Positions 43,501 through 46,500 of a DNA stretch of 64,000 nt are shown here, in pieces. The position numbers were made by a program. The DNA is taken from the NCBI RefSeq assembly GCF_056712565.1, contig NZ_CM160072.1; one strand, written 5' to 3'. Each line of letters begins with the position of its first letter. Within the stretch, counting starts at the first letter, position 1.

Positions 43501-46500
43501 TTGTACTTCAGGCAAACCGAGCACCGTTTTAGGATCGTCAGTACAAACACGACCGTGGCACGCCAGCGCCAACTCCAGCCCGCCGCCCAGGCAAGCGCCA
43601 TGAATAGCCGCGATAACCGGAATGGGCAAAGCATGAATCTCCGCCATTAACTGTTGCCCCTGCCGCGCCAGTACTTCCGCTTCTTGCGCCGTTTTGCAGT
43701 TGCCGATCATGTTGATGTCTGCGCCAGCAATGAAGTTGTCTGGTTTCGCGGAGACAAACACCACGCCACGCAACTCTTTGTTTTCACGGATTTGCTTAAT
43801 AATGGCGCGTACCTGCGAGGCAAATTCCGCCTTGAGGGTATTCATTTTCTCACCCGGTACGTCGATGGTGATGATAGCAATGTTGTCCAGACGAACATTA
43901 AGAGTAAACGCTGATGCCATTTCCATTATTCCGCCTCCAGAACCATTGCTGCGCCAAGCCCACCCGCAGCACAGGCGGTCACTAAACCAAATCCACCGCC
44001 ACGACGGCGAAGTTCATGCAATGTCTGGGTAATCATCCGCGCGCCGGTCGCTGCGAAGGGATGCCCATAAGCAATCGAACCGCCAAGCACGTTAAATTTG
44101 CTCTCGTCCACTTCGCCAGTGGCATGTGCACGCCCCAGTACGTCGCGAGCAAAACGTTCGCTACCCAGCAACTGAATATTGGCCAGCGTCTGGGCGGCAA
44201 AGGCTTCGTGCATATCGATCAATGTCAGATCGCCCATCGTCAATCCGGCACGTTCCAGCGCCAGCGGTGTTGACCAGGCTGGACCGAGCAACATGTCCTG
44301 CCAGACATCTATCGCAGTAAATGCGTAGCTGCGCAGATACCCCAGCGGTACCAGCCCTAATTCTTTCGCCCGGGATTCAGTCATCAGGATCACCGCTGCC
44401 GCGCCATCGGTCAGCGGCGTACTGTTTGCCGCCGTTACCGTCCCGTGTTTACGATCAAACGCCGGACGCAGCTTTGCGTAATCAGCAAGAGAGGAATTAC
44501 CGCGAATATTGTTGTCTTCGACAAGCGGTTGTTTATAAGGGGGGATAAAGGCAGTCATCACCTCTTCTTTGAGTTTACCTTCTGACCACGCCTGAGCGGC
44601 ACGCTGATGCGAACGGTGCGCCAGTGCATCTTGCTGTTCTCGGGTGATGCCGTAGGTTTTCGCCATTTGCTCTGCGGTGTCCCCCATCCGTAATCCAGTG
44701 GAGTATTCCGCCACTGCCGGAGGCACCGGCATTAAGTCACGCAAACGTAAGCGAGAAAAAAGTTTCAGGCGCTGGCTCATTGTGCGGGCTTTGTTGACAT
44801 CAACCAGTACGCGCGCCAGTTTTTTACTGACGCCAATTGGCAATACGGAAGAGGAATCTGCCCCACCGGCAATCCCCGCTCGAATAGTTCCCGCCATCAG
44901 GCTTTCTGCGACGTTTGCAACCGCCTGGAAACTGGTAGCGCAAGCGCGGCTAACGCTGTAAGCATCGGTATGCACATTCATTCCAGTGCCAAGAACAATT
45001 TCACGGGCAATGTTGGGCGCTTCCGGCATTTGCACAACCTGACCGAAGACCAGTTGTTCAATCACTTCAGCGGGGATCTCGGTGCGTGCCAGCAGTTCGC
45101 CTACCACCATCTTCCCTAAATCAACCGCGGGAATGCCATGAAAAGCCGTCGCCTGTCGGGCAAAAGGCGTACGTAAACCGCTAACAATGGCGATACGATC
45201 GCCCTGGCGGGTAACCAGCGGTAAAACCTGACCCATAACACTCCCCTGTAAAAAAATAAATAAAGTGGTCTGACCTGATCATAGTCTTAACCATTTTTTT
45301 ACATTTAGCCAAGTGGAGAAAAGGGAAAGTGGGAGCTATGACACAGAGAGAAAAGAAGAAGAGAAAAGAAAACGCCCCTGCCAGCAACTGACAGGGGCGT
45401 ATGTACCCGAGAGGAATTAACGCAGACCCAGCTGGAAGATCAGCATTTCAGCTTCGCAGGCAAAAGTGAAATCGATATCCAGGCGCACACCGTCAGACTC
45501 TTCAGTGAAAGTCGGGGTGATTTTGCACGGTTCGGATTCCACGCTACGGGCTTTTTCAGTCAGCGCCGCCAGCGTTTGTTCTGCTTCTGCGCGGTTTGCA
45601 AACACACGGCTGTAAGACGCGGTGCAGTCGGAGTTGTCCATAATGGTGCCAACATCCATACAGCAGCAAACCGGGGTTTCATCAGCACTACATTTACTCA
45701 TCGTTGATTTCCTCTGTATGTGCACCCAAGGTGCCAGATAAACGTTGTGGATATTTTACGCTTCCGGAAAGTGCTGCTCCAGTTGTTAATTCTGCAAAAT
45801 CGGATAAGTGACCGAAATCACACTTAAAAATGATCTAAAACAAAATTCACCCGAATCCATGAGTGCGCCACCTCCCAATTTTGCCAGCTGGATCGCGTTT
45901 CTTAGATCATATATGAAAAAAGATAGAAACATACTTGCAACATTCCAGCTGGTCCGACCTATACTCTCGCCACTGGTCTGATTTCTAAGATGTACCTCAG
46001 ACCCTACACTTCGCGCTCCTGTTACAGCACGTAACATAGTTTGTATAAAAATAAATCATTGAGGTTATGGTCATGAGCCAGAAAACCCTGTTTACAAAGT
46101 CTGCTCTCGCAGTCGCAGTGGCACTTATCTCCACCCAGGCCTGGTCGGCAGGCTTTCAGTTAAACGAATTTTCTTCCTCTGGCCTGGGCCGGGCTTATTC
46201 AGGGGAAGGTGCAATTGCCGATGATGCAGGTAACGTTAGCCGTAACCCCGCATTGATTACCATGTTTGACCGCCCGACATTTTCTGCGGGTGCGGTTTAT
46301 ATTGATCCGGATGTAAATATCAGCGGAACGTCTCCGTCTGGTCGTAGCCTGAAAGCCGATAACATCGCGCCTACGGCATGGGTTCCGAACATGCACTTTG
46401 TTGCACCGATTAACGACCAATTTGGTTGGGGGGCTTCAATTACCTCTAACTATGGTCTGGCGACAGAGTTTAACGATACTTATGCAGGCGGTTCTGTCGG

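Follow-up and report, generated by a model that had tools for sequence, protein, structure and literature searches.

The window analysed here, i.e. the whole stretch of 64 kb of DNA, is part of an Escherichia coli chromosome, with several E. coli chromosomes, among them that of the type strain ATCC 11775, matching a 1-kb query around the three regulatory boxes described below at 100% identity. The fadI/fadL locus in this window is shared by 5425 of 5426 complete E. coli genomes and, according to the RefSeq annotation of both identical DNA and K-12, is arranged as fadJ-fadI-yfcZ on the minus strand, fadL on the plus strand and then mlaA. The genes, together with the boxes and promoter elements between them, are as follows.

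41782-43926, minus strand: fadJ, multifunctional alpha subunit (TIGR02440 FadJ equivalog, 1337.3 bits; RefSeq annotation)
43926-45236, minus strand: fadI, 3-ketoacyl-CoA thiolase (TIGR02446 FadI equivalog, 900.6 bits against a cut-off of 711.55; RefSeq annotation)
45263-45279, no strand assigned: fadI FadR box, AAGTGGTCTGACCTGAT on the plus strand and ATCAGGTCAGACCACTT in the direction of fadI (exact match; top weight-matrix score)
45281-45312, minus strand: putative fadIJ core promoter (read from the sequence; hexamer regions conserved)
45372-45400, minus strand: predicted intrinsic terminator of yfcZ, with a 13-bp stem and a T-rich tail (terminator prediction)
45417-45701, minus strand: yfcZ, DUF406 protein of unknown function (TIGR00743, 157 bits; RefSeq annotation)
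45807-45822, no strand assigned: CRP site AGTGAccgaaaTCACA in the yfcZ/fadL spacer (read from the sequence; a conserved island in the 79-sequence alignment)
45947-45963, plus strand: fadL FadR box 1, AGCTGGTCCGACCTATA (exact match; weight-matrix rank 3)
45960-45965, plus strand: fadL -10 hexamer TATACT (read from the sequence)
45971-45987, plus strand: fadL FadR box 2, CACTGGTCTGATTTCTA (exact match; core of a published probe; conservation)
46073-47413, plus strand: fadL (NF007988 equivalog, 878 bits; RefSeq annotation)

FadI, FadJ and FadL all score above the curated cut-offs of their NCBIfam equivalog models, and the start of fadJ overlaps the stop of fadI, as in an operon. Between fadI and fadL, the sequence-only reading of this DNA had left out yfcZ, which is placed there by TIGR00743 as well as by RefSeq. 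The fadI box is located inside the 180-bp spacer between yfcZ and fadI, downstream of the strong yfcZ terminator that separates yfcZ from the fadIJ promoter, and both fadL boxes are located inside the 371-bp spacer between the divergent genes yfcZ and fadL. At gathering thresholds, Rfam finds no RNA family in 45150-46150, and a hidden riboswitch or small RNA thus does not offer itself as an explanation for this region. The gene for the regulator itself, fadR, is not part of the 64 kb; of 5426 complete E. coli genomes, 5422 carry it, and the locus is 100% identical to that in several of these genomes.

Three matches to the FadR box had originally been claimed upstream of fadI and fadL, given as the strings AAGTGGTCTGACCTGAT, AGCTGGTCCGACCTATACT and CACTGGTCTGATTTCT, and each of these strings is indeed found exactly once in the window and at the promoters in question, i.e. 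at 45263-45279, 45947-45965 and 45971-45986, respectively. The span of 45254-45986 that had been assigned to them is exact at its end, but starts 9 nt before the first box. Compared to the FadR consensus aaCTGGTCnGACC(T/A)Gtt (PMC9329746), the mismatches over the 16 specified positions amount to two in the fadI box, which lies upstream of the fadI ATG with 26 nt between them, to three in fadL box 1 and to five in fadL box 2, which combines an intact left half-site with a degenerate right one.

For the scoring of these matches, five FadR sites, i.e. those of fadBA, fadD1, fadD2, fabA and fadE, were combined into a leave-out weight matrix, with the restriction to sites outside of the window being imposed because circularity was to be avoided. 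The fadE sequence entered this matrix in what we take to be the orientation of its FadR site. The sequences for fadBA, fadD site 1, fadD site 2 and fabA came from a published probe table (PMC4259882, Table 2) and that for fadE from a table in a study of LldR (PMC10272880). Both strands of the 64 kb, corresponding to approximately 128,000 positions, were scanned, and chance expectations were derived from 200 first-order Markov simulations, with the following results.

fadI box: 16.4 bits, rank 1, 0.015 expected by chance
fabB FadR site (known), 26316-26332: 15.3 bits, rank 2, 0.06 expected
fadL box 1: 14.0 bits, rank 3, 0.26 expected
fadL box 2: 10.5 bits, rank 10, 7.4 expected per 64 kb

In this weight-matrix scan, which had been suggested as a check on the original claim, the fadI box and fadL box 1 clearly stand out, but fadL box 2 is at chance level; as an isolated match in the 64-kb scan its score does not exceed chance, and several other positions in the window score higher. 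A search with the consensus itself, allowing at most three mismatches, yielded only two distinct sites, i.e. fadL box 1 and the fadI box, the latter on both strands, compared to 0.61 expected matches. As 5 of 100 shuffles equalled this result, such counting of mismatches was dropped as too blunt and the leave-out weight matrix was used instead. The 8-mer core TGGTCNGA occurs in 14 copies in the window, with 5.9 being expected; most of these copies are TGGTCAGA and are dispersed away from the fad promoters, and the core is therefore not diagnostic by itself.

Orthologous promoters were obtained by a FadI-seeded scan with one genome per species, which gave 80 loci covering Escherichia, Citrobacter, Salmonella, Enterobacter, Klebsiella, Buttiauxella, Kosakonia and, further afield, Serratia and Rahnella. 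Seventy-eight of the 80 loci extend upstream of fadI (the other two end at a contig end), and in 77 of these 78 both yfcZ and fadL are kept upstream of fadI, with only Shimwellia (L066) being without yfcZ. The conservation on which the initial claim was to be judged is present for all three boxes, i.e. in 77 upstream regions of fadI and 78 of fadL, counts that come from phylogenetically related loci and do not represent independent events. The fadI box is the best matrix match within 200 nt upstream of fadI in all 77 loci, with its end usually being located 24-42 nt before the ATG, and its positions G3, G5-G6-T7-C8 and G10-A11-C12-C13-T14-G15 are invariant in these 77 loci. In the 78 loci, the two fadL boxes precede the ATG by approximately 126 and 102 nt, always with a spacing of 24 nt. 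In the arms of box 1, GG, C and ACC are invariant and the remaining positions are kept in 76-77 of the 78 loci, with the central base being free (A in 55, C in 8 and G in 15 loci) and the outermost positions varying as well. Box 2 shows no or almost no variation at ACTGGTC.G and TTT across the same 78 loci. As a side observation, several Buttiauxella loci carry an additional insert between the fadI box and the ATG.

Alignment with MAFFT gives the same picture at the level of entire spacers. The fadI box outranks all other 17-mers of its spacer in conservation (0.975 compared to a spacer mean of 0.664), and the fadL boxes, at 0.92 and 0.94 (0.939 for box 2) compared to a spacer mean of 0.787, include the top-ranked 17-mers of an alignment of 79 sequences. 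Across the orthologous promoters, the TGGTC/GACC arms are fixed and position 9 of the consensus (N) varies freely. This pattern of conservation follows the FadR motif and is not one that a -10 hexamer or a transcription start site would yield. The three boxes are thus present in the window, identical to those of K-12, fixed in position and visible as phylogenetic footprints, and two of the three are also statistically exceptional.

The anatomy of the two promoters was read by eye and from the literature and is to be taken as putative; a sigma-70 promoter scan called neither the fadL nor the fadI promoter, with the -10 candidates of fadI being weak. For fadL, a functional CRP site centred 157 bp upstream of the transcription start has been validated by gel shift (Feng & Cronan 2012, PMC3460868). 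Since a CRP-like palindrome, AGTGAccgaaaTCACA, is centred at 45814.5 in the window, we infer that fadL transcription starts at A45972, i.e. 7 nt after TATACT, which is separated from TTGCAA by a gap of 19 nt. With this start, fadL box 1 would extend from -25 to -9, with its last four bases (TATA) also forming the beginning of the -10 hexamer, and box 2 from -1 to +16. FadR sites 1 and 2 of fadL are said to have been footprinted by DiRusso et al. in 1993, at positions matching these two intervals.

The putative fadIJ core promoter can be read in two ways, either with a -35 element TTGGCT (45312-45307), a 17-nt spacer and a -10 element TAAGAC (45289-45284), or with GACTAT (45286-45281) as the -10 element. 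The fadI box is located 2-8 nt downstream of these two candidate hexamers, and under either of them transcription would start inside the FadR box. In the literature, the FadR site of fadIJ overlaps a start that is itself only predicted, and the fadL sites overlap the transcription start as well (PMC9329746). The boxes had previously been described as flanking the promoters; instead, they overlap the core promoters, i.e. from -25 to -9 and from -1 to +16 at fadL and over the putative start at fadI, which is the geometry to be expected of a repressor that excludes RNA polymerase.

Binding of FadR, its release by acyl-CoA and repression in vivo are matters on which we rely on the literature. The gel-shift probes fadL-FadR1, GCAACATTCCAGCTGGTCCGACCTATACTCTCGCC, and fadL-FadR2, CTCTCGCCACTGGTCTGATTTCTAAGATGTACCTC (PMC4259882, Table 2), are both exact substrings of the window, and box 1 and box 2 are the cores of these probes. 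FadR binds to both fadL sites with equal affinity and is released by oleoyl-CoA; nevertheless, the two sites together provide only modest repression (PMC3460868). The description of box 2 as the weaker one is thus correct with respect to sequence score (10.5 compared to 14.0 bits), but not with respect to affinity, which is equal in gel shifts (PMC3460868). Both fadL and fadIJ are listed among the genes directly repressed by FadR, with Campbell et al. 2003 being the source for fadIJ (PMC9329746), and derepression in vivo, in fadR mutants or on oleate, has been reported for both (PMC3460868, PMC9329746). A full-text literature search with the sequence of the fadI box, in either orientation, matched no paper. 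The FadR site of the fadIJ (yfcYX) promoter was reportedly described by Campbell, Morgan-Kiss & Cronan in 2003. Direct binding of FadR at fadI is therefore taken from the citation of Campbell 2003 in the review (PMC9329746). Taken together, the agreement with the known fad regulon that had been proposed is borne out, with the boxes being identical to those of K-12, the fadL boxes corresponding to the cores of published FadR probes and fadIJ being covered by the review (PMC9329746).

For fadL box 2, it is not the score but the position, the conservation and the published binding that argue for a real operator. This degenerate box would fall below any score threshold and yet is as strictly conserved as the strong boxes, which calls for caution against rejecting sites by a weight-matrix cut-off alone. 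A matrix score below threshold, which the sequence-only reading had accepted as a refutation, would wrongly reject box 2.

All this makes it almost certain that the three boxes are the established FadR operators of the E. coli fadIJ and fadL promoters. FadR, as a GntR-family repressor that senses long-chain acyl-CoA, is expected to sit as a dimer on each of the 17-bp pseudo-palindromes (with their TGGTC-N-GACC core) when fatty acids are absent. At fadL, the spacer together with the -10 hexamer would then be covered by box 1 and the transcription start by box 2, and at fadIJ the single box would cover the putative start; with FadR occupying the core promoter or the start, RNA polymerase would be blocked. 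Once FadD has activated imported long-chain fatty acids, the resulting acyl-CoA would bind to FadR and take it off the DNA, which should allow expression of the transporter FadL and of FadIJ, the second beta-oxidation complex. Activation by CRP and repression by ArcA are superimposed on this control by FadR.

A different view of the locus starts from yfcZ. It could be a functional member of a fatty-acid uptake and degradation locus, with the '-157' CRP site, published as an unusually distant activator site of fadL, really serving the divergent yfcZ promoter and the FadR/LldR/PdhR boxes being shared docking sites. We regard this as rather improbable. Two observations bring it to mind: in 77 of the 78 loci extending upstream of fadI, yfcZ persists between fadI and fadL, and a conserved -10-like element, TAAAAT (45758-45753, minus strand), has the CRP site upstream of it at a distance of approximately 68 nt. 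If true, fatty-acid, lactate and pyruvate signals would be combined at the shared boxes for the entire fadJ-fadI-yfcZ-fadL block. The identity of the three boxes is left unchanged by such a role of yfcZ. Control of yfcZ by the fadL boxes was also considered and was set aside, since approximately 190-230 nt lie between the putative -10 element of yfcZ and these boxes upstream of it, a distance too large for simple occlusion.

It is very unlikely that the boxes serve mainly as operators for other GntR regulators of the FadR subfamily, i.e. for lactate-sensing LldR in the yfcZ/fadL spacer and for pyruvate-sensing PdhR at fadI, even though the consensus sites of LldR and PdhR (AAnTGGTCnGACCAnTT and AATTGGTnnnACCAATT, respectively) resemble the FadR box. 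Genomic SELEX with LldR has led to the two fadL boxes being named LldR boxes, as AgcTGGTCcGACCtaTa (11/14) and cAcTGGTCtGAtttcTa (9/14), and fadL mRNA is reported to change with the level of LldR, but the SELEX intensity is low, with 6.6 compared to 62.9 for lldP (PMC10272880). For PdhR, SELEX gave a peak at the fadI/yfcZ spacer and fadI mRNA was lower in a pdhR mutant (PMC7660256), with the FadR box of fadI fitting the PdhR consensus at 10 of 14 positions. However, the signals at these spacers are weak, the boxes match the LldR and PdhR consensus less well than that of FadR, and it is for FadR that binding and release by acyl-CoA have been demonstrated directly on these sequences (PMC3460868). 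Moreover, LldR and PdhR are reported to activate, an effect not easily reconciled with sites that cover the -10 element and +1. Plausibly, LldR and PdhR contribute at most cross-talk at these spacers that is layered on control by FadR.

Mere chance resemblance, with conservation stemming only from ordinary promoter elements (-10, start and 5' UTR), would accommodate the chance-level score of fadL box 2, the four nucleotides which box 1 has in common with the -10 hexamer and the good overall conservation of both spacers (means of 0.79 and 0.66), but it is hardly conceivable with the fadI box and fadL box 1 being the top matrix matches in 64 kb apart from the known fabB site, with all three boxes showing conservation in the shape of the motif (arms fixed, central N and outer positions variable) and with published gel shifts (PMC3460868, PMC4259882) and reported footprints already contradicting it.

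The assignment of the three boxes as FadR operators confirms that the window contains intact canonical FadR-controlled fadIJ and fadL promoters. Regulation of fadL and fadIJ by FadR is already known and textbook material, and the result matters little beyond annotation. Small additions are the strict conservation of fadL box 2 across Enterobacterales and the presence of four FadR operators in the window, including the one at fabB, which is 19 kb away.

How, then, do these promoters compare with known FadR-controlled systems? With respect to K-12, a comparison suggested at the outset, a 900-bp region is 99% identical to that of MG1655, with all bases of the three boxes being unchanged. At the fadL promoter, both boxes, their 7-nt linker and the -10 hexamer are the same as in K-12, and the nearest difference is a single A/T change at 45914, approximately 33 nt upstream of box 1. 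At the fadIJ (yfcYX) promoter, the box and the whole fadI-proximal part of the spacer are identical, with no difference being detected, and the FadR site, which in K-12 has been reviewed as lying over the predicted start (PMC9329746), shows the same overlap in the window. The operator of fadBA, ATCTGGTACGACCAGAT, which is the site in the FadR-DNA crystal structure (PDB 1H9T; PMC9329746), has its 17-bp architecture and its TGGT...ACC arms in common with the boxes in the window, and with a first matrix, which had been trained on fadBA, the fadI box reached 16.15 bits compared to 16.32 bits for fadBA itself. The fadBA operator is a perfect palindrome, however, whereas the palindromes of the fadI box and of fadL box 1 are imperfect and fadL box 2 keeps the left arm only. 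Finally, the activator sites of fabB and fabA share with the boxes in the window both the regulator and the motif family; they feature TGATC in place of TGGTC, are located upstream of the -35 element and, rather than repressing, activate.

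In the PdhR SELEX study the fadI peak was attributed to cAgcGGTaaaACCtgac, a 7/14 match (PMC7660256), which lies at 45217-45233, i.e. within the fadI coding sequence. By our own count, the FadR box at 45263-45279, 30 nt away, agrees with the PdhR consensus at 10/14 positions, and this box is more likely to be the PdhR contact at fadI than cAgcGGTaaaACCtgac.

The yfcZ terminator and the fadI promoter are separated by a long stretch (45320-45371) in which purines prevail on the plus strand and pyrimidines on the fadI strand. Its conservation is poor, with the exception of TGTCAtagctcCCACT at 45343-45328; this element is similar to a CRP half-palindrome and is possibly the CRP site reported for fadIJ. 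The FadR box is usually located about 25-40 nt upstream of the fadI ATG, whereas in seven Buttiauxella loci of our FadI-seeded comparison (L027, L029, L030, L034, L048, L054 and L056) this distance is 88-159 nt, which implies an insertion in the 5' leader of fadI.

The divergent yfcZ/fadL spacer (45702-46072) contains further known or potential regulatory elements:
45807-45822, CRP site
45753-45758, yfcZ strand, TAAAAT, a conserved -10-like element
around 45783-45769, yfcZ strand, sigma-54-like TGGAGCAGCACTTTC
The CRP site has been validated at -157 of fadL, where it was termed atypically distant (Feng & Cronan, PMC3460868). It is also situated about 68 nt upstream of the -10-like element, and the divergent putative yfcZ promoter may be its target. 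According to SELEX studies, this spacer is bound by RpoN holoenzyme and NtrC as well (PMC8743547).

Among the compared loci, FadL itself occurs in two sequence types. Identities of 91-95% are common to the window, E. albertii, Salmonella diarizonae and C. amalonaticus; a divergent type is found in most Citrobacter and Enterobacter loci and also in L003, the locus of the E. coli species representative SCPM-O-B-8794:
1826-3163 of L003, FadL divergent from the window type
In L003, FadL is just 77% identical despite 98% for FadI and 100% for YfcZ, a pattern suggestive of allelic replacement at the gene for this phage receptor.

Downstream of yfdC, two features stand 8 kb apart:
49528-49599, plus strand, tRNA gene after yfdC
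57327-57393, plus strand, sar RNA, the P22-type antisense RNA (RF00262, full-length match, 83.9 bits)
Together, they suggest that a P22-like prophage has integrated close to the tRNA gene.

FadR-matrix matches also lie in two distant regions:
15351-15603, minus strand, three tandem naRNA4/CssrE (RF02564) matches spaced by 91 nt
26316-26332, minus strand, the known FadR activator box GGCTGATCGGACTTGTT upstream of fabB
25029-26249, minus strand, fabB
The former is a REP/BIME repeat cluster, which yields three identical weak FadR-matrix matches, GCCTGATAAGACGCGCT. With the leave-out matrix, built from five FadR sites outside the window, the fabB box ranks second in the window, and the sequence around it differs from the published fabB probe by a single mismatch, located upstream of the box.
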